Assembly (NCBI GenBank): GCA_041309125.1 | Contig: JBFZAD010000196.1 | Span: forward strand, 1-19,594 | Length of the DNA: 19,594 nt | From: Candidatus Omnitrophota bacterium | GTDB taxonomy: Bacteria; Omnitrophota; Gorgyraeia; Gygaellales; Gygaellaceae | Direction of reading: 5' to 3' | In this document: one piece after another, positions 3,484-11,222 of the stretch | Layout: every line of letters starts with the position of its first letter | How positions within the stretch are numbered: position 1 is the stretch's first letter | Translations under genes and position numbers: made by a program | Notes under the pieces: generated by a model | What the model was told of the DNA's origin: nothing | Databases searched by the model: none | The model's input: only the letters and a program-made list of their open reading frames with translations

Positions 3484-4041
3484 TTAACCTTTGATTAATG
3501 CAAGCGTCTCTGAGCGCGTCTTCTCATTTTCCTTAAAAATACCTCTTACGGCTGAAGTTGTAGTAACCGTGCCTGGCTTTTTTACTCCGCGCATTGACAT
3601 GCAAAGATGCTCTGCCTCAATAACAACCATTACTCCAAGGGGTTTAAGCTTTTCCATGATTATCTCAGCAATCTGTGTAGTGAGCCTCTCCTGAACTTGT
3701 GGCCTTTTTGATAATATATCAACGACCCTGGCAATCTTGCTTAGACCAGTTACCCTGCCGCCTTTTGGTATGTAGGCAATATGCGCCCTGCCTAAAAACG
3801 GCAGTAGGTGATGTTCGCAGCAACTGTAAAGGGGTATATTTTTCAGGAGAACTATCTCCTCGTGTTTCTGATCCAAAATAACCTCTAATTCTTTTCTCGG
3901 ATCTTGTTTTATCCCGGCGAATATCTCCTCATACATCTCTGCCACCCTCCTAGGCGTTTCCAGCAAATCCCGACGTTTAGTATCCTCTCCGATTGCCTCT
4001 AAGATCATCCTTACTGCTCTCTCAATTTTCTTTTTATCCAT
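3484..4041 (-). CDS. folE: GTP cyclohydrolase I (FolE type 1)
   Basis: 185 aa with the hallmark [10 protein letters not shown] zinc/active-site motif, the GLSK.AR segment, QVQERLT and [15 protein letters not shown] lies 5 nt upstream of the ATG. Confidence 0.95.
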
Positions 4042-4062: not shown

Positions 4063-4080
4063 CTGCCTGCCGGCAGGCAG
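4063..4080. repeat. 18-nt perfect GC-rich palindrome CTGCCTGCCGGCAGGCAG in the mnmE-folE spacer
   Basis: Read directly: CTGCCTGCC is the reverse complement of GGCAGGCAG. As RNA it could form a 7-bp stem with a CCGG loop. No U-tract follows on the transcribed minus strand. Confidence 0.85.
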
Positions 4081-4094
4081 ACACCAAACACCAA
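4081..4094. repeat. Tandem heptamer ACACCAA x2 (TTGGTGT x2 in gene sense), ending 2 nt from the mnmE stop codon
   Basis: Read directly: acaccaa acaccaa at 4081-4094, directly next to the palindrome. Confidence 0.8.
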
Positions 4095-4096
4095 AT

Positions 4097-5545
4097 CTAT
4101 TTCCCTATGCAAAACTCACTAAATATTCTATCCAACACCTCATCCGAAACAGTTTGACCCGTAATTTCACCCAGGCTCTCAATAGCTAATTTTACATCTA
4201 AAGCAACAAATTCCCAAGACAATTTTTGCCTTAAACTATCAACTGACCTAGCGATTGATTCTTCTGATTTCTTCAATGATTCTATATGCCTGGCATTGCT
4301 TACGATAATACTTTGCGTATTTATAATCTTGCCATGCCAAATCTTTTTTATGATTTCATTTTCTAAATCACCGAGCCCTATATTTCTTGTTGCAGATAGT
4401 CTGATTATCTTTTTAAATTTTTTCTTTAATAGATTAACCTCTATCTTTAATGGTAGGTCAACCTTATTAATAACTACAATAAGTTCTTTGTCCCCAGAAA
4501 GTTTAATTATCTGTTTATCTTGGTTGCTGATTTTCTTACTGCCGTCAAATATCAATAATACTAAATTTGCTTCCTTTAAATATCTTAAGCTGCGCGATAT
4601 AGCCTCTTTTTCAATTATATCCTTTGGCTCAATAATTCCTGCCGTGTCGACAAAGCGTAGTGGCACTCCCTTAATATCAACAAACTCTTCAATGACATCG
4701 CGGGTTGTCCCGGCAATTGGAGTTACAATTGCCCTCTCTTCACGTAAAAGCATATTCAATAGAGAAGATTTACCTACATTTGGCTTGCCACAGATAACAA
4801 CATTAATTCCCTCTCTTAAAATCTTGCCTTCGTTTGAGTTATGAAGGATCGAGATAATTTTGGATTTTAAATTTTTAAGCATTTTCTTTATCTCTTTATA
4901 TGATAGGCTGCTATTATCCTCATCAGGAAAATCAATATTTGCCTCTATTTGAGTCAAGATATCTAGCAGCAATCCTCTTAGAACATTAATCTCTTTTGAT
5001 AGCCTTCCCCTTAATTGATCCAGGCCTAATTGTAGTCCCATGTCTGTCTTTGAGCTCACAATATCTAAAACAGCCTCTGCCTGAGTAAGATCTATTCTGC
5101 CGTTTATAAAGGCGCGCTGGGTAAACTCGCCAGGACGGGCGAGCCTTGCACCATTTGACAAGACTAAATCTAGAATATTTTTTAAAGGAACAATCCCTGA
5201 ATGACAGTTTATCTCAACTATATCTTCGCGCGTGTATGTATGCGGCGCCCTCATTACCGTCACCAGCACCTCGTCAATAATGTTGCGTAGTGCGTAGTGC
5301 GTAGTGCGTACAGCGTTTTCTTTCGACGCACGACGCACGACGCACGACGCACGACGATTAATAATCCAGCCATAATTTGTAGAATAGTTCCTAGCCTTGC
5401 TTAAACTTCTTGCCTTTGCCGATTTAAAAATCCTATCTACAATCTTGATGGCGTCTTTGCCGCTAACCTTAACGATGCCGATTCCGCCTTCCCCTATCGG
5501 AGTCGAGATAGCAACGATTGTATCGTGTAAATCTAATTCAGACAT
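4097..5545 (-). CDS. mnmE: tRNA modification GTPase MnmE (TrmE)
   Basis: The N-terminus is DTIVAISTP.GEGGIGIV. The G-domain has GKPNVGKSSLLN, TPIAGTTRD and DTAGI. The C-terminus ends in the hallmark FCIGK. The ATG overlaps the folC stop by 13 nt. Confidence 0.95.
   Translation of the reverse strand: MSELDLHDTIVAISTPIGEGGIGIVKVSGKDAIKIVDRIFKSAKARSLSKARNYSTNYGWIINRRASCVVRRASKENAVRTTHYALRNIIDEVLVTVMRAPHTYTREDIVEINCHSGIVPLKNILDLVLSNGARLARPGEFTQRAFINGRIDLTQAEAVLDIVSSKTDMGLQLGLDQLRGRLSKEINVLRGLLLDILTQIEANIDFPDEDNSSLSYKEIKKMLKNLKSKIISILHNSNEGKILREGINVVICGKPNVGKSSLLNMLLREERAIVTPIAGTTRDVIEEFVDIKGVPLRFVDTAGIIEPKDIIEKEAISRSLRYLKEANLVLLIFDGSKKISNQDKQIIKLSGDKELIVVINKVDLPLKIEVNLLKKKFKKIIRLSATRNIGLGDLENEIIKKIWHGKIINTQSIIVSNARHIESLKKSEESIARSVDSLRQKLSWEFVALDVKLAIESLGEITGQTVSDEVLDRIFSEFCIGK
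5284..5356. repeat. Inverted pair of heptamer arrays inside mnmE: (TGCGTAG)x3+TGCGTAC, a 12-nt spacer, then (CGACGCA)x4+CGACG
   Basis: Read directly. Arm 5284-5311 and arm 5324-5351 are complementary at 23 of 28 positions, with one A/G mismatch per unit. In frame they encode NRRASCVVRRASKENAVRTTHYALRN. Confidence 0.9.
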
Positions 5546-6954
5546 AGCTTACGTGCCTCTGCTGTAACATAAAGAGAGCCTGTGATTAAAATCAAACTCT
5601 CTTTATTATTATATCTTTTAGTAAGATTTAATGCGCTGGCAACATCTTTTGTAGTATGAAATTCAGACAAAACTTCATTATTAAGGCCACCCAGTGATTT
5701 TAATATAAATTTTGTGCTTGCTGCCCTTGGATTTTTTGATTTTGTAAGAATAATATTCTTACAAATTGGGAATAACTCATTGGCAATTGATTTTATATCC
5801 TTATCTTTGGCTGCGCCAAAAATTAGATTGATACCTATTCTTGAGAATCTTTCTATCAGGGTAGTCTTCAACGCTCTTGCCGAAGCTTGGTTCTGTGCGC
5901 CATCTATTATTATTAAAGGCTTGCGGGAGATTATTTCAAACCGTGAAGGCCACTTTGTGTTTAGTAATCCTTTTCGAATTTTATTTTCTCTGACATTTAT
6001 ACTCTGTTCTTTTAGGGCCTCAATAACACCAATCGCTACAGAGGCATTAATAATCTGATGAAAACCGAGAAATGGAATCTTAACTTTTTTATAATTATTA
6101 AATTTAGAATAGAAATTAAAGGTCTCTCCTGCGCTATCAAAATCCGTTCTCTCAAATAAGATATCTTCACCTATTTCGTACAACTTTGCATTTTTATCCT
6201 TACATCTTTTTTTAATTACTTCTCCTGCAATATCTTCTTGCGGTGCACTAATCACGCATAGCTGTGGCCTGTGGCCTGTGGCCTGTGGCCTTCTTTTTAT
6301 AATTCCAGCCTTTTCCTTTGTAATTCTTTCCAAAGTGCCACCTAATATCGCAGTATGTTCATAGCTAATAGGAGTGAGCGCAGAAACGAGCGGATTCACA
6401 GTATTAGTTGCATCGAGCCTTCCCCCTAAACCAGTTTCTAGCACAACAAAATCAACTTCTTTTTCTAGAAAATACAAAAACGCCAAAGCAGTAAGCACTT
6501 CAAAAAAAGTTAAATTATAATCTTTTTTTCTTCTTTTTATCTCATCTATCCCTATTTTCAATTTTCTCATCAAGTTTGTAAAATCATCGCAGGAAATCAT
6601 TCCTTCAAAATCTGACTGAAGCCTGTGGCCTGTGGCCTGAAGCATGTGGCCTGAAGCCTGTGGCCCAGAAGATAAGATCCTTATCCTCTCTCTAAAATCA
6701 TTCAAATGCGGCGATGTATATAGTCCTACCCTATATCCCGCTTCGCGCAAAATATATGCAATGAATGCACAGGTTGAACCCTTGCCTTTAGTTCCAGCTA
6801 CATGAATACATTCAAGTCTTTCTTGTGGATTCCCAATGAAGTTCAAAAAATATTTGAAGCGACTTAAATCAAATGAGGTTTTATACGGATAGGACGATAT
6901 CTTCTCGTAATCAATGAAGGAATTTAAATAAGATATTGCTTTTTGGAAAGTCAA
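5533..6954 (-). CDS. folC: Bifunctional folylpolyglutamate synthase / dihydrofolate synthase (FolC, Mur-ligase family)
   Basis: P-loop HVAGTKGKGST, SPHL..F.ERI, ETGLGGRLDATN, ISYEHT and DGAQN motifs are all present. Confidence 0.9.
   Translation of the reverse strand: MTFQKAISYLNSFIDYEKISSYPYKTSFDLSRFKYFLNFIGNPQERLECIHVAGTKGKGSTCAFIAYILREAGYRVGLYTSPHLNDFRERIRILSSGPQASGHMLQATGHRLQSDFEGMISCDDFTNLMRKLKIGIDEIKRRKKDYNLTFFEVLTALAFLYFLEKEVDFVVLETGLGGRLDATNTVNPLVSALTPISYEHTAILGGTLERITKEKAGIIKRRPQATGHRPQLCVISAPQEDIAGEVIKKRCKDKNAKLYEIGEDILFERTDFDSAGETFNFYSKFNNYKKVKIPFLGFHQIINASVAIGVIEALKEQSINVRENKIRKGLLNTKWPSRFEIISRKPLIIIDGAQNQASARALKTTLIERFSRIGINLIFGAAKDKDIKSIANELFPICKNIILTKSKNPRAASTKFILKSLGGLNNEVLSEFHTTKDVASALNLTKRYNNKESLILITGSLYVTAEARKLCLN
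6262..6290. repeat. Tandem heptamer (CTGTGGC)x4 inside folC (GCCACAG in gene sense)
   Basis: Read directly: four perfect units at 6262-6289 plus one base. In frame they encode RRPQATGHRPQ. Confidence 0.9.
6616..6664. repeat. Tandem heptamer array of 7 units inside folC: CTGAAGC CTGTGGC CTGTGGC CTGAAGC ATGTGGC CTGAAGC CTGTGGC
   Basis: Read directly. In frame it encodes GPQASGHMLQATGHRLQ. It uses the same core unit as the 6262-6290 array, mixed with a CTGAAGC variant. Confidence 0.9.
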
Positions 6955-6964
6955 AACCTATACC

Positions 6965-8536
6965 TTAATGCCTAAAATGCCTAAATCCTGTTGCCACCAT
7001 AGGAATATTGTACTTATTGCACACCTTTACAATTTCATCATCTGCGATTGAGCCACCTGGTTGGATTACGGCCTTTATGCCATTTCTTATGGCTAGGCTA
7101 ATTGCATCTGCTTTTGGAAAGAATGCATCTGAGGCAAGACAAGCACCTTTAGTCTTAGCCTTTCCCCCGGCCTTTTTTACTGAAATATATACTGAATCAA
7201 CTCTGCTCATCTGTCCTGCACCTATACCAATAGTCTTTGTGCCCTTTGTAAGTATTATGGCATTAGACTTAACATGCTTTGCTATCTTCCATGCAAATAT
7301 CAAAGAATCCATTTGTGCCTTTGTCGGCTTCTTTTCTGTCATTACCTTTAGATTATTTACATCTAAGGTAACTAAATCCTTATCTTGAAGAAGCGCTCCT
7401 CCTGAAACTGTACGAAAGTCCAATTTCTGATTCCTAGACGTATCAAAATCACAAGAAAGTATCCTTAAATTTTTCTTATCTTTTAAAATCTTAAGCGCTC
7501 CTTCTTCATATCCAGGCGCAATAATACATTCTAAGAATCCGCTTCTTGATATTGCCTTTGCAGTATCCACATCAACTTTCCTGTTTAAACCGACTATTCC
7601 TCCAAAAGCAGACAGCTTATCGCAACCCCAAGCCTCAATGTATGCCTTTTTTAATGTCTTTGATTCGCTCGCTCCGCAAGGATTATTGTGCTTTAATATA
7701 ACCGCTGCAGGCCCCTCAAACTCTCTGACTAAATCAAATGCCGAGTTAAGGTCAAGAATATTATTAAATGAAAGCTCTTTGCCGTGCAATTGCTTGCATG
7801 ACGCAAGGCCATAATCTGCCGATGCATCTTTATAAAAAGCGCCTTTCTGATGAGGATTCTCTCCATAGCGTAAAGGCTGAAGCCTTTCGTACTCAAGTCT
7901 TAAAAATCTAGGGAATGCACTTTTCTGTTCGGAATCTTTTTTATCTGCGGCATTCTTTAGAAACTCATAAATTGCAGCATCATAATGTGAAGTCTTCTTA
8001 AAAACTTCAACTCCAAGAGAAACCAATGTCTCATCAGAAAGCGAACAGTTGTTTTTCTTTAATTCCAGGAGGATTGCATCGTATCTTTCGGGATTACTTA
8101 TGACTGCCACCGACCTAGAGTTTTTGGCAGCAGAACGCAACATTGACGGACCGCCTATATCTATATTCTCAATTGCCTCATGCAATGTGACATCAGGCTT
8201 TTTTATAACGCTCTCAAATGGATAGAGATTCACAACAACCATATCAATAAGCCCAATTCCATGATTCTGGATTTGTCTCATATGTTCTTTGTTGTCTCTT
8301 AAAGCCAATAGGCCGGCATGGATCCTTGGATGTAATGTCTTTACCCTTCCATCCAGCATTTCAGGAAAACCAGTATATTCTGAAACATCCTTAACAGGAA
8401 TTTTATTCTGTCTTAATGATTTGGCGGTGCCGCCCGTTGAAAGAATTTCTACTCCAAGACTACTTAAACCTGCTGCAAAATCTATAATTCCCGCTTTGTC
8501 AGACACGCTGATCAGCGCACGTTTTACCTTTAGCAT
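6965..8536 (-). CDS. purH: Bifunctional AICAR transformylase / IMP cyclohydrolase (PurH)
   Basis: 523 aa. The N-terminal MGS-like domain reads KRALISVSDKAGI..FA..L...GVEILSTGGTAK and GRVKTLHP.IH.G. The C-terminus reads SDAFFPF-like (SDAFFPKADAI) and ends TGFRHFRH. Confidence 0.95.
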   Translation of the reverse strand: MLKVKRALISVSDKAGIIDFAAGLSSLGVEILSTGGTAKSLRQNKIPVKDVSEYTGFPEMLDGRVKTLHPRIHAGLLALRDNKEHMRQIQNHGIGLIDMVVVNLYPFESVIKKPDVTLHEAIENIDIGGPSMLRSAAKNSRSVAVISNPERYDAILLELKKNNCSLSDETLVSLGVEVFKKTSHYDAAIYEFLKNAADKKDSEQKSAFPRFLRLEYERLQPLRYGENPHQKGAFYKDASADYGLASCKQLHGKELSFNNILDLNSAFDLVREFEGPAAVILKHNNPCGASESKTLKKAYIEAWGCDKLSAFGGIVGLNRKVDVDTAKAISRSGFLECIIAPGYEEGALKILKDKKNLRILSCDFDTSRNQKLDFRTVSGGALLQDKDLVTLDVNNLKVMTEKKPTKAQMDSLIFAWKIAKHVKSNAIILTKGTKTIGIGAGQMSRVDSVYISVKKAGGKAKTKGACLASDAFFPKADAISLAIRNGIKAVIQPGGSIADDEIVKVCNKYNIPMVATGFRHFRH

Positions 8537-8553: not shown

Positions 8554-9252
8554 TTATTTATTGAATCTGAAATTAAGCCAATCTGCATCCTTAACAATAT
8601 ATTCTTTATCCTCAAGCCGCATTAAATTCTGCGCCTTTGCCTCATTAACCCCGCCTGATTTAACTAAATCTTCATAGCTAATTACCTCTGCCCGGATAAA
8701 ACCCTTTTGTATTGTAGAATGAATCTTTCCGGCTGCCTCATAACATGTTGTGCCATATTTTACACACCAGGCGCGGGCTTCTTTTGAACCTACTGTAGTA
8801 AAAAATGAGATATGTCCAAACTCTTTATACGCATTTAATAGGATATCTTCAATATTTGAGATATCTGAACCTATAATATAAACTGGTTTTAAAGTTATAA
8901 GATTATACCCAAGTATATCCTTCGGTAAATCATCCTGAAGGACACATTTAGAAAGTATATTGTCCTTTTCCAATTCCTCTTTTAGCCTTGAAATTTTTGA
9001 TATCTTGTCCTGATCAGCGGCCGAAGCGAGTAATTTTTCTACAGACTCTAAATCCTCTATTATTAAATCCGTCTTTTTCTCTTGCGAGCATATTATGGCA
9101 TCTGCCTCAGAAATTCTTGCGCTATCAATTAATTCAAGTTGGATATATGTCTGACCAGGACACTTGGTCAATTCTTTTACCTTATCCAGGCGTTCATCTT
9201 TAAGATTTGTCTTGCCCTGTTTGTATTCTATTCCTATTATGGCTATCTTCAT
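8554..9252 (-). CDS. YchF-like protein with a degenerate G-domain and an intact C-terminal YchF/TGS-like (DUF933) domain
   Basis: The C-terminus ARAWCVKYGTTCYEAAGKIHSTIQKGFIRAEVISYEDL...YIVKDADWLNFRFNK closely parallels the YchF C-terminal domain. The protein is only 232 aa. The P-loop position reads GIEYKQGKT instead of G.PNVGKST, and the switch II position reads LIDSA instead of D.AGLV. Confidence 0.7.
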   Translation of the reverse strand: MKIAIIGIEYKQGKTNLKDERLDKVKELTKCPGQTYIQLELIDSARISEADAIICSQEKKTDLIIEDLESVEKLLASAADQDKISKISRLKEELEKDNILSKCVLQDDLPKDILGYNLITLKPVYIIGSDISNIEDILLNAYKEFGHISFFTTVGSKEARAWCVKYGTTCYEAAGKIHSTIQKGFIRAEVISYEDLVKSGGVNEAKAQNLMRLEDKEYIVKDADWLNFRFNK

Positions 9253-9275: not shown

Positions 9276-11222
9276 TTATTCTTCTGCCTTTTTGTCCACC
9301 TGATTCTTAGCTATAATCTCCTGCATAATTTTATGCGGAACTTCTTCGTAATGGGAAAACTTCATGGTAAAGGAACCTCTGCCTCCTGTCATAGAGCGCA
9401 GGTCATTTGCATATTTAAACATCTCTGCCAAAGGCACCTGGGCCTTGACCACCTGGTTTCTTCCTCTTGAATCCATACCCATAATCCTGCCGCGCCTTGA
9501 ATTTAAATCTCCTGAAATCTGGCCCATAAATTCTTCAGATATGAGTATCTCTACATCCATAATCGGCTCAAGCAATGCCGGGCCTGCCTCAAGCACGGCC
9601 TTACGCAATGCCATGGAACCTGCAATTTGAAAGGCCATATCAGAAGAATCAACCGGATGAAAAGAACCATCATACAGGATTACCTTAACGCTCACCAAAG
9701 GATAGCCTGCCAGGGCTCCTTCTGTCATTGCCTGTCTAACTCCCTTCTCGACAGAGGGAATATAGTTTTTAGGTATTGCACCTCCGAATATCTTGTCTAC
9801 AAATTCAAACTCTGCATCCTTTGGCAAGGGTTCTATCTCTAGCCATACATCTCCGTATTGACCACGGCCTCCGGATTGTCGTTTATACTTACCTTGGACC
9901 TTGGCGCCCTTCTTTATAGTCTCTTTATAAGGTATCTTGGGAGTACCAAGATCAACATCTACGTTAAATCTTTTCTTCATCCTGGCCACCATAACATCAA
10001 GATGTAGCGCTCCTAGGCCCGATACTATTAATTCCTTTGTCTGCAGGTCTCGGCTTACCTTAAATGTATGGTCTTCGCTGCTCAATTTTGAGAGCGCGCT
10101 TGATATCTTTTCTTCATCATGCCTTGACTTTGGCTTTATAGATTCTGAAAAACATGATTCTGGTAATGTAGTCTCAAGGTAAATAAGGCCTGAGTTATCT
10201 TCAGCCAATGAATCATTGGTTGATGTATCCTTTAATTTTGACAGCGCTACAATATCTCCGCATACAGCCTCAGTGACTGCAACCTGTTCCTTCCCCTGCA
10301 ACAGATAAATTGAACCGATTCTTTCTTTTAAATCCTTGTTTATATTATAAAATCCTGTACCAGAGATCAACTTTCCTGCAAATATCCTTATTATGCTAAG
10401 TTGCCCGACGTAAGGGTCTGATATGCTCTTAAATACAAAAGCAGAAAAAGGCTTATCAGGCCCATATACCAATAGTTTTTCTTCTTTGTTTCTGTTTGTC
10501 AATTTTAACTGCGGCCTCTCAAGAGGAGAAGGAAGAAATTTAACTATTGCATCAAATAATTCTTCTATGCCCTTATCTTGAAGACAAGAACCAAATATCA
10601 CAGGAAAAAGCTTCGCATTTTGGACCGCCTTATGAAGGCCCAGTTTTATCTCTTCTTCTGAAAGACTCGCGCCTTCTAAGTATTTCTCAAGCAAGGCATC
10701 ATCCGCTTCGCAAACTGCCTCGATTAAAGACGGATCATTAAGAGATACTAAATGAAATATATTCTTCCCAAAACATTCCCTTAATTCCTCAAGCGTCTTA
10801 TCGGCATTAGTATTTTCTTTGTCTAATTTATTTATAAAAAATATCCTGGCTAAATTATTTTTGTTCAATAACTCCCAGTCCCTTTCTGTACCAACCTCAA
10901 CTCCGGTTACGGCATCTATTACTACAATTGCGCTATCTACGCCAGCACAAGAAGAGATAACCTCTCCTTCAAAATCTGCATAGCCAGGGGTATCAATAAC
11001 CTGAATTGCATATTCTTTAATTTTAAAATTAAGGAAGCTGCTGCTTATAGAGATTTTTCTTTCTATTTCATCCTCGCTGTAGTCACTGACGGTATTGCCC
11101 TCCGGCACAGTTCCTTTGCGGCTTATAGCGCCTGCCTTAAAAAGCATGCATTCCGAAAGGGAGGTCTTACCGCTATGGGCATGGCCAACTAAAATAATAT
11201 TCCTTTTTAGATTTATATCCAT
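9276..11222 (-). CDS. Elongation factor G family GTPase, EF-G2-like paralogue
   Basis: 648 aa. G1 is VGHAHSGKTSL, G2 is GNTVSDY..DEIER, and G3 is DTPGYADF. The NKLD motif is present, and domain IV/V-like segments include GGRGQYG. The short length and the HAHSGKT and PGYADF variants resemble Thermus-type EF-G2 rather than canonical FusA. GGAGAGGA lies upstream of the ATG. Confidence 0.85.
   Translation of the reverse strand: MDINLKRNIILVGHAHSGKTSLSECMLFKAGAISRKGTVPEGNTVSDYSEDEIERKISISSSFLNFKIKEYAIQVIDTPGYADFEGEVISSCAGVDSAIVVIDAVTGVEVGTERDWELLNKNNLARIFFINKLDKENTNADKTLEELRECFGKNIFHLVSLNDPSLIEAVCEADDALLEKYLEGASLSEEEIKLGLHKAVQNAKLFPVIFGSCLQDKGIEELFDAIVKFLPSPLERPQLKLTNRNKEEKLLVYGPDKPFSAFVFKSISDPYVGQLSIIRIFAGKLISGTGFYNINKDLKERIGSIYLLQGKEQVAVTEAVCGDIVALSKLKDTSTNDSLAEDNSGLIYLETTLPESCFSESIKPKSRHDEEKISSALSKLSSEDHTFKVSRDLQTKELIVSGLGALHLDVMVARMKKRFNVDVDLGTPKIPYKETIKKGAKVQGKYKRQSGGRGQYGDVWLEIEPLPKDAEFEFVDKIFGGAIPKNYIPSVEKGVRQAMTEGALAGYPLVSVKVILYDGSFHPVDSSDMAFQIAGSMALRKAVLEAGPALLEPIMDVEILISEEFMGQISGDLNSRRGRIMGMDSRGRNQVVKAQVPLAEMFKYANDLRSMTGGRGSFTMKFSHYEEVPHKIMQEIIAKNQVDKKAEE

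Follow-up and report, generated by a model that had tools for sequence, protein, structure and literature searches.

Heptamer repeat cassettes in frame within folC and mnmE of Candidatus Omnitrophota

Background

Tandem repeats of seven nucleotides are the most abundant class of long simple repeats in bacteria according to Mrazek (2007), as that survey is summarised in PMC4679880 and PMC4692102, with GGGAATC in Xanthomonas and Nostoc and TAACTGA in Beggiatoaceae among the examples (PMC4679880, PMC4692102). The published heptamers prefer four units (PMC4692102, PMC4679880); they are in excess in intergenic regions and depleted in coding sequence (PMC4692102). Here we analyse a 19.6-kb contig of Candidatus Omnitrophota (the window, in what follows, is this whole stretch), in which short tandem arrays of heptamers lie inside mnmE, the gene of a tRNA modification GTPase, and folC, the gene of a folylpolyglutamate/dihydrofolate synthase. 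The G+C content is 56-74% in these arrays and 37% in the window. We assign a probability of about 0.54 to the reading that they are slippage-prone DNA repeats, tolerated as hydrophilic loops in PurH, FolC and MnmE, which would turn over by slippage and short-patch copying and would not be regulatory.

The Omnitrophota arrays resemble the described bacterial heptamers in their tandem organization, in the preference for about four units, in occasional inverted pairs and in copy-number change by slippage. In contrast to the latter, which use one unit per genome, they use many units that are replaced as cassettes, and they are in frame, inside housekeeping genes and at orthologous loops. The heptamers of the STRR type, with the units CCCCAGT, TTGGTCA and CAACAGT, are mostly intergenic and belong to heterocystous cyanobacteria. 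They are known in Calothrix and Nostoc, as far as the citation in PMC4692102 goes, and are likewise lineage-specific 7-nt tandem arrays of few copies; however, no listed Omnitrophota unit matches an STRR unit, and our arrays are intragenic and come from another phylum. Rickettsia palindromic elements are about 150 bp in length, share a family consensus and lie in frame in unrelated metabolic genes dispersed over the genome (PMC10969869). As in Rickettsia, palindromic repeat DNA is here in frame and translated as an extra peptide compatible with the protein fold, but the Omnitrophota elements are 30-69 nt long, consist of tandem heptamers with lineage-specific units, occupy three adjacent genes and differ between close relatives. 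Both families had been named as the nearest analogues in an earlier note on the window; the arrays lack defining features of either, and membership in them is not supported.

A REPIN is a hairpin located outside genes and associated with a RAYT transposase (PMC3116915). Like a REPIN, the mnmE cassette is a hairpin of two inverted short repeats of similar size with families inside a genome, and a gene of the Y1 transposase family, to which REPINs are related, is present at one fetched locus. The arms of REPINs are not tandem arrays, whereas the Omnitrophota hairpin lies inside a gene and has arms built of tandem heptamers; in addition, each REPIN family has its RAYT gene, whereas in our data there is no consistent association, with a PF01797 gene in a single locus (L082). 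The duplication of flanking bases that accompanies MITEs was not observed in cassettes stacked with their flanks. Small dispersed repeats are also known from Nostoc (Elhai et al. 2008, cited in PMC3116915). They reportedly nest inside other repeats. An Omnitrophota palindrome of about 20 nt, of the form CCTGCC/GGCAGG, is similar in that it nests in other repeats and in the loops of hairpins and that some close relatives have it and others lack it; it differs in sequence and host phylum, and its nesting is in frame in coding loops. The Omnitrophota case has features in common with each known system and fails a defining feature of each, and our literature search returned no description of such repeats in Omnitrophota.

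Results and discussion

Repeat elements of the window

Using Tandem Repeats Finder and an exact period scan, we identified four repeat elements in the whole window, at 4063-4095, 5284-5356, 6262-6291 and 6616-6665. The earlier note had proposed a local hotspot of four GC-rich heptamer or palindromic elements in the folC-mnmE-folE stretch, and this hotspot was confirmed: no array with at least three copies was found outside the four elements in the 19.6 kb scanned. Beyond 4063-6665 there are just four exact two-copy heptamers of 14-15 nt (at 9891, 17024, 17232 and 17774), which is about the level of chance, and the exact scan found no tandem run of at least two copies with a period of 8 or 10-12 in the window. 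All four proposed sites are real, but the element at 4063-4095 is an intergenic palindrome with a two-copy array only. The elements and their host genes are listed below.

4097-5545, minus strand: mnmE, tRNA modification GTPase, host of the hairpin cassette (Pfam, homologs, PDB matches)
5281-5358, minus strand: whole mnmE cassette, about 22-23 added codons, MnmE residues ~63-88, at a beta-hairpin turn in the N-domain (120-homolog alignment, Pfam, AlphaFold2)
5324-5356, minus strand: arm 1 of the cassette, CGACGCA x4.7 with 100% matches; sense (CGTCGTG) x4.7, encodes RRASCVVRRAS (Tandem Repeats Finder, exact scan)
5311-5323, minus strand: A-rich spacer of 13 nt, hairpin loop between the arms (sequence)
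5284-5310, minus strand: arm 2 of the cassette, TGCGTAG x3.9 with 100% matches; sense (TACGCAC) x3.9 (Tandem Repeats Finder, exact scan)
5533-6954, minus strand: folC, folylpolyglutamate/dihydrofolate synthase, host of two arrays, overlapping the start of mnmE (Pfam, homologs, PDB matches)
6262-6291, minus strand: folC site B array, CTGTGGC x4.3 with 100% matches; sense (GCCACAG) x4.3, encodes RPQATGHRPQ after the EKAGIIK motif (Tandem Repeats Finder, exact scan)
6616-6665, minus strand: folC site A array, seven units, a mix of CTGTGGC and CTGAAGC (sense GCCACAG/GCTTCAG), after the RERIRIL motif (Tandem Repeats Finder)
4063-4080, no strand: CTGCCTGCCGGCAGGCAG, perfect palindrome of 18 nt, between mnmE and folE (spacer of 55 nt; sequence)
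4081-4095, no strand: ACACCAA x2.1 array adjoining the palindrome (Tandem Repeats Finder, exact scan)

The array ACACCAA x2.1 by itself is at chance level. The open reading frames stay open through all three genic elements. The closest MnmE relatives have 52-56% identity and are named Candidatus Omnitrophota by their sources, while the exact MnmE protein of the window was found on one NCBI-sourced contig only. Arrays of this size are shorter than typical sequencing reads. We rejected an assembly artefact as the origin of the cassettes, since separate assemblies contain the same cassettes (P0037, for one, is on 23 contigs; here and below, P#### are our labels for homologous proteins and L### for fetched loci or contig stretches).

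Architecture and protein setting

The two mnmE arms, 5284-5310 and 5324-5356, form an inverted pair in which six of the seven positions per unit are complementary, and the RNAfold energy of the hairpin in the window is -38 to -43 kcal/mol. Across relatives the general form is about four units of 7 nt (sometimes 8 nt), either single or as an inverted pair that folds into a hairpin of ~69 nt; copy numbers cluster at ~4.3-4.7 units. The folC site A array is best described, by its Tandem Repeats Finder score, as 2.1 copies of period 21, that is, as a 21-nt duplication of three units. The high G+C content, which had been taken for a common property of the elements, did not hold as a defining trait; related genomes also use the units AAAAGTC, AAATCAA and AAAAGGC.

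In MnmE, the insert RRASCVVRRASKENAVRTTHYALR falls between the conserved motifs YGWI and IIDEV of the N-domain, and the Pfam TrmE_N domain spans 142 residues in the protein of the window versus a profile of 117 positions. In the AlphaFold2 model, strands 55-62 and 89-98 flank residues 63-88, and the predicted local distance difference test score (pLDDT) is below 50 at residues 66-86. The FolC sites coincide with indel-rich stretches in homolog alignments, and the alignment to the Thermotoga FolC structure (PDB 1o5z) is broken at query residues 94-118, which is site A. Loops at site B are 21-27 nt longer with an array than without one. At FolC site A and at the PurH site, arrays substitute for the loop without length change.

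Among the array units, 31 of 32 are free of stop codons in all three frames of the sense strand, versus 21 of 32 in the antisense strand and a random expectation of 0.775. The lone stop-containing unit, ATGAACC in L083, belongs to an array that ends after two units, just where TGA would enter the frame. The units are poor in T (14%), and polar residues are therefore encoded in the loops. Frame preservation, stop-free sense strands and a location in loops had all been suggested for the window, and all three were borne out there and in the relatives, where the common length changes come in steps of 21 nt. Judged by the stop-free sense units and the predicted MnmE loop, the arrays keep the reading frame and are translated as loops. 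The encoded loops are best read as hydrophilic, structurally unimportant segments at permissive surface positions.

Conservation of the sites across Omnitrophota

An alignment of 120 Omnitrophota homologs places the insert at the exact same MnmE position in most of them. The most frequent spacing between the two motifs is 28 residues (50 of 127 unique inserts), with further modes at 21 and 14 residues. At offsets 7 and 8, residue identity inside the inserts reaches 17.7% and 13.6%, respectively, versus about 5% at most other offsets; this peptide periodicity is the footprint of the 7-nt and 8-nt periodicity of the DNA. At the DNA level, ten other loci have a full or nearly full cassette composed of one unit repeated 4-5 times, a spacer and a second unit repeated 4-5 times, usually with 111 nt between the motifs. 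The unit pairs differ by genome, for example GCGTCGT/CGCACAG, GTCATGC/CAAGACA, CAGGTCA/CTGCAGC and ATGGTTC/ATGAACC, and examples of 8-mer units in mnmE cassettes are GTTCTCGA and GTTAGCCA. Arm 1 of the window is identical to an arm in L081, the MnmE of which is just 54-55% identical. A scan of species-representative genomes for MnmE returned mostly Firmicutes and about 15 Omnitrophota loci, few of them with the insert.

In FolC, peptide repeats among 120 homologs numbered 89 at offset 7, about 17 of which are conserved helix sequences (query 120 and 250) and not arrays, versus 1-21 at each remaining offset between 4 and 11. They fall at four sites:

Site A, query position ~90-100: peptide periodicity in 17-19 of 120 homologs
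Site B, query ~220 (10-residue bin): period-7 peptide repeat in 29 of 120 homologs, period-8 in 12 of 120
Site C, query position ~260: peptide repeats, 120 homologs
Site D, query position ~410-420: peptide repeats, 120 homologs

PurH has one array-bearing loop, present in L018 and L083, and the purH-folC spacer has arrays in L084, L209 and L210. One and the same 8-mer, GTTAGCCA / CAGTTAGC, is the unit of a purH-folC spacer array in one genome and of an mnmE cassette arm in another (L210 4048-4086, L207 10184-10218). In L207 (9246-9320), FolC site B holds a perfect 32-nt unit in 2.3 copies (75 nt, in frame) and no heptamers; the loop at this site thus takes other tandem duplications too. In L205 (8803-9960), three small open reading frames, including a ParE toxin gene, are located between folC and mnmE, and arrays remain on both sides.

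A gene-specific hotspot

Period-7/8 arrays of at least 3.5 copies were collected from 21 Omnitrophota loci with a total length of 408 kb. Within folC and the first 300 nt of mnmE, which together account for 8.8% of this length, lie 37 of the 42 arrays (binomial p = 6e-34), and two of the five remaining arrays are in purH. Exact arrays of at least three copies are about tenfold denser in the Omnitrophota loci (15 per 352 kb) than in the loci fetched from other phyla (5 per 1,197 kb). As a control we used the M20 peptidase encoded in the same window. No cassette was found in its 120 Omnitrophota homologs, the only offset-7 signal of which is a conserved amphipathic helix, and their lengths are 374-376 aa versus 442-500 aa for FolC and 459-500 aa for MnmE. 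The sites are thus both conserved and gene-specific. The earlier note had left a choice between a selfish repeat family and a locus-specific process, and these data, with a hotspot conserved across the phylum and a negative control, favour the latter over a genome-wide family.

The genes around the hotspot are as follows.

3484-4041, minus strand: folE (Pfam)
6965-8536, minus strand: purH (Pfam)
8554-9252, minus strand: short gene with a YchF C-terminal domain only, between the EF-G gene and purH (Pfam)
In the region of purH-folC-mnmE-folE, minus strand: EF-G gene (Pfam)

The gene order LAM, EF-G, ychF-C, purH, folC, mnmE, folE is kept in most of the related loci fetched. The YchF C-terminal-only protein has 229-236 aa in every syntenic locus, and because the same short form recurs in all of them it is a conserved short protein, not a frameshifted ychF.

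A metagenome scan with the degenerate heptamer GTKCRTS x3.5 listed arrays of other, unrelated heptamers in a wide range of phyla (GC 0.33-0.70), and neither mnmE nor folC was among the matches listed. Outside Omnitrophota, L119 5011-6719 (GC 0.63, an unrelated high-GC organism) has a non-ribosomal peptide synthetase reading frame with four in-frame heptamer arrays; arrays of this kind are therefore not unique to Omnitrophota. In Thermodesulfovibrionales, L064 (20811-21383) contains three period-7/8 arrays inside 600 nt. Five related viral contigs of 34-265 kb (L213, L215, L218, L219, L220) have (GCGTCGT)n at one orthologous spot with 3.3-4.4 copies, and this copy-number polymorphism involves the same unit as an mnmE arm of the window.

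Turnover by slippage and cassette replacement

As close relatives we regard the members of clusters with at least 90% protein identity. The MnmE cluster of P0038 illustrates the range of loop states: P0038 itself has the cassette DCHTPHATRHTPKTKSVKREACSLKQK, P0124 has the same cassette minus HATRHTP (7 aa, 21 nt), P0127 has a wholly different cassette, NQFSGSKILKFSNSDLRTNELTNQRTE, and 12 of the 14 other listed members are insert-free (ten proteins of 460 aa, as well as P0123 and P0134, whose N-termini are longer). Cassettes with about 93% identity to that of P0127 occur in P0011, P0051 and P0109, proteins with a core identity to P0127 of just 74-80%, and mosaic tests on MnmE confined the foreign tract to positions ~61-91. 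When 158 proteins were ordered by core similarity, the cassette families were scattered over the tree. The FolC clusters behave in the same manner; one member, P0305, has a two-armed cassette at site B and its relatives have none, and other members differ by 7 or 10 aa. Because the same loops hold different repeats or no repeats in near-identical relatives, the repeats are replaced as cassettes, and on short time scales. Presence/absence polymorphism among relatives and a family of short expandable repeats, both envisaged in advance, were thus found. Slow vertical co-evolution of an ancient hairpin was rejected as the main account, since clusters at this level of identity differ in cassette or have none.

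Slippage by a single unit was observed in L211, a 76.5-kb contig with folC split exactly at site B, where the sequence reads ATTATT(AAAAGGC)x3.6AAAAATTAATT. This array is one AAAAGGC unit short of the one that encodes KRQKAKGKRQK in the intact relative P0275, and hence single-unit slippage does occur. L211 is the single frameshift allele among the complete FolC and MnmE genes inspected, the others being in frame with about four units, and close relatives usually differ in length by multiples of 21 nt, or else in the whole cassette. Slippage thus proceeds by 7 as well as by 21 nt. Short MnmE cluster members were considered as further frameshift products and rejected as such, being C-terminal fragments consistent with contig ends; one short FolC member, P0312, is ambiguous between a fragment and a frameshift product. 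In P0331/P0332, on a contig of 1456 nt, the same-unit arrays of folC sites A and B are joined when compared with P0265, through either a deletion by direct-repeat recombination or a misassembly.

Arrays within a genome have units in common. Unit pairs that match at 6 or more of the 7 positions in either orientation make up 31% of pairs within a genome versus 5% between genomes (random 1.8%; Fisher p = 2e-8), and in L082 and L083 one unit is used at 4-5 sites. The mean duplex energy of arm pairs is -30.9 kcal/mol for the arms of one cassette versus -15.6 kcal/mol for cross-genome pairs (permutation p <1e-4). Inside one arm the units are mostly identical, and between the two arms there is a fixed mismatch per unit, a pattern suggesting that homogenisation is faster inside an array than between arms.

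Small palindromes

The intergenic palindrome CTGCCTGCCGGCAGGCAG is a copy of the (CCTG)n/(CAGG)n micro-palindrome, and palindromes of the same type occur in L081 (303), in L018 (541) and in the mnmE cassette of L208, where a CCTGCC palindrome sits at the centre. A role of CTGCCTGCCGGCAGGCAG as a terminator was rejected; the palindrome has no T-run after it and was not called by the terminator scan. The exact 20-mer CCTGCCTGCCGGCAGGCAGG was found in 35 viral-contig stretches (L226-L260, GC 0.38-0.68; for example, L250 2239-2330, L257 515-534, and L246 2648/9001/10422/10690), several of its copies being on the same contig in some cases. One copy is the variable arm of a tRNA-Met (a 92-nt tRNA), one lies in a D-loop-like context and others are in loops of larger hairpins, and of 40 independent contexts on viral contigs, about 9 place it inside heptamer arrays. 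In these respects CCTGCCTGCCGGCAGGCAGG behaves like an ultra-small element targeting hairpin loops, and its spread in viral contigs ties the intergenic element of the window (the palindrome and ACACCAA x2) to a wider phenomenon.

Translated palindromes are also found among the differences between FolC proteins. P0231 and P0329 differ by CLTGRQA, and the stretch that differs between P0287 and P0324 has LPAGEAG, both being translations of CCTGCC..GGCAGG-type palindromes. P0336 and P0235, members of the same cluster of close relatives, differ by the presence of SSAEGGPAYGG, which corresponds to a palindrome of the GCCGAAGGCGG/CCGCCTTCGGC type. The latter type also occurs in L084 FolC (9682-9738) and in MnmE P0052, in frame in loops, and translations of palindromes like it include AAGGSAFGE, ARGGFAFGE and AEGGPAYGG.

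What maintains the repeats

We judge the repeats to be tolerated, self-renewing DNA and no regulatory device. Slipped-strand events change the copy number; a change by one unit causes a frameshift and would normally be purged, and a change by three units (21 nt) keeps the frame and would persist. We infer that only three-unit steps survive in this way. In addition, whole cassettes give way to a short patch, so that the site stays and the sequence changes. Neighbouring arrays of the 2-3 kb zone, and now and then those of another lineage, may serve as the source of the patch, through template switching or gene conversion across a fork-sized distance or through a putative structure-specific enzyme. 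If copying were local, the clustering of repeats in purH-folC-mnmE would follow. Several points weigh against this explanation. Short-patch copying is a putative mechanism, and both the fixed cassette length across unrelated families and the stronger conservation of a cassette than of its host gene would fit a dedicated mobile element equally well. The persistence of the mnmE insert in ~70% of lineages could reflect selection. The p-values overstate independence, the loci being interrelated and all found via mnmE; the scarcity of arrays elsewhere rests on ~372 kb of flanks and one control gene; and the clusters of close relatives may mix species.

A mobile element proper would be an ultra-small site- or structure-specific unit, REPIN- or MITE-like, with cassettes inserted, excised and spread by a dedicated enzyme such as a Y1/HUH transposase acting on hairpins. 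It would account for the patchy distribution, for cassettes that are better conserved than the host gene, for a constant size of ~69 nt across unrelated unit families and for the same cassette families in FolC and MnmE; the occurrence of exact CCTGCCTGCCGGCAGGCAGG palindromes in viral stretches, including the tRNA-Met variable arm and heptamer arrays, points in the same direction. A Y1_Tnp gene (PF01797; the IS200/IS605 and RAYT family) is indeed present at L082 18150-18749, ~8 kb downstream of the repeat zone, but it is the transposase gene of just one of ~22 loci. Furthermore, neither target-site duplications nor separate terminal inverted repeats were seen in stacked cassettes and their flanks, arrays replace the loop with no change in length both at FolC site A and in PurH, and almost no copies lie outside purH, folC and mnmE in 372 kb of flanks, with none in the control gene of 120 genomes. 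We therefore consider such an element rather unlikely. Similarly doubtful is a broader proposal, in which a dedicated structure-recognising system writes heptamer hairpins and 20-nt CCTGCC/GGCAGG palindromes into hairpin loops and permissive coding loops, the former in phage tRNAs and the latter in Omnitrophota folate enzymes. If true, these would be ultra-small DNAs of a new class, mobile or templated, with families moving between lineages.

The remaining explanations rank below tolerated, self-renewing repeats. Contingency loci retain tracts whose one-unit gain or loss reversibly switches a gene, here folC or mnmE, and such an on/off switch had been suggested for the window. The unit length is not a multiple of three and most arrays are perfect (three with 100% matches, two in mnmE and one in folC, plus the mixed folC array); L211, exactly one unit short on its long contig, is a natural off-allele. 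This one allele is the full extent of the single-unit variation seen, however, the other variants being 21-nt multiples or whole cassettes; all other complete FolC and MnmE genes inspected keep the frame, and the short members checked are C-terminal pieces consistent with contig ends. The tracts of ~4 units in folC, mnmE and purH have a length at which slippage rates are low, the hosts are housekeeping enzymes and not surface, virulence or restriction genes, and in many lineages the arrays at these sites are decayed or missing. A maintained switch is thus improbable. Still less probable is a selected nucleic-acid structure, in which the mnmE hairpin, and pairing between same-unit arrays in folC, would regulate translation, coupling or decay of the folC-mnmE-folE transcript. 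The hairpins are strong (z-scores of ~-4 to -7 for full-length cassettes), their arms co-vary between families and their position 170-280 nt into mnmE is conserved. However, the cassette is present or absent among close relatives, arm complementarity varies from 4/7 to 7/7, and the FolC arrays are single and unpaired. Rfam covariance models gave no family match, the only hits being two sub-threshold ones to microRNA models (E = 0.15 and 0.54). Selection at the mRNA level was rejected on the ground that G-U pairs show no sense-strand excess (21 sense versus 41 antisense); since the antisense strand, moreover, often folds better, the palindromy looks like a property of DNA and not like an mRNA signal. 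Neither a regulatory RNA nor a routine phase switch is supported. Finally, diversifying selection on surface loops of the folate-binding enzymes PurH, FolC and MnmE, for example for escape from a protein inhibitor, could use repeats merely as a source of variation, and all three hosts do bind folates, adjoin each other and have loops that differ between close relatives. This we regard as highly improbable: the periodicity is one of nucleotides and not of any protein motif, complementarity, as between the mnmE arms, is a feature of DNA or RNA, the spacer between purH and folC has arrays as well, insert-free alleles are common, and the enzymes are cytoplasmic with no known antagonist.

Conclusions

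Frame-breaking, microsatellite-like DNA can persist inside essential genes, where it is constrained to around four units and 21-nt steps. In Omnitrophota, one short gene neighbourhood is a phylum-wide repeat hotspot while its sequences turn over between near-identical strains, which makes it a natural system for studying the copying of repeats between nearby sites. The cassettes show the gain and loss of protein loops, and they provide strain-level markers for an uncultured phylum. If there is an enzyme behind the exchange of cassettes, or behind the 20-nt palindrome in phage tRNA loops, it would point to a new kind of very small mobile DNA.

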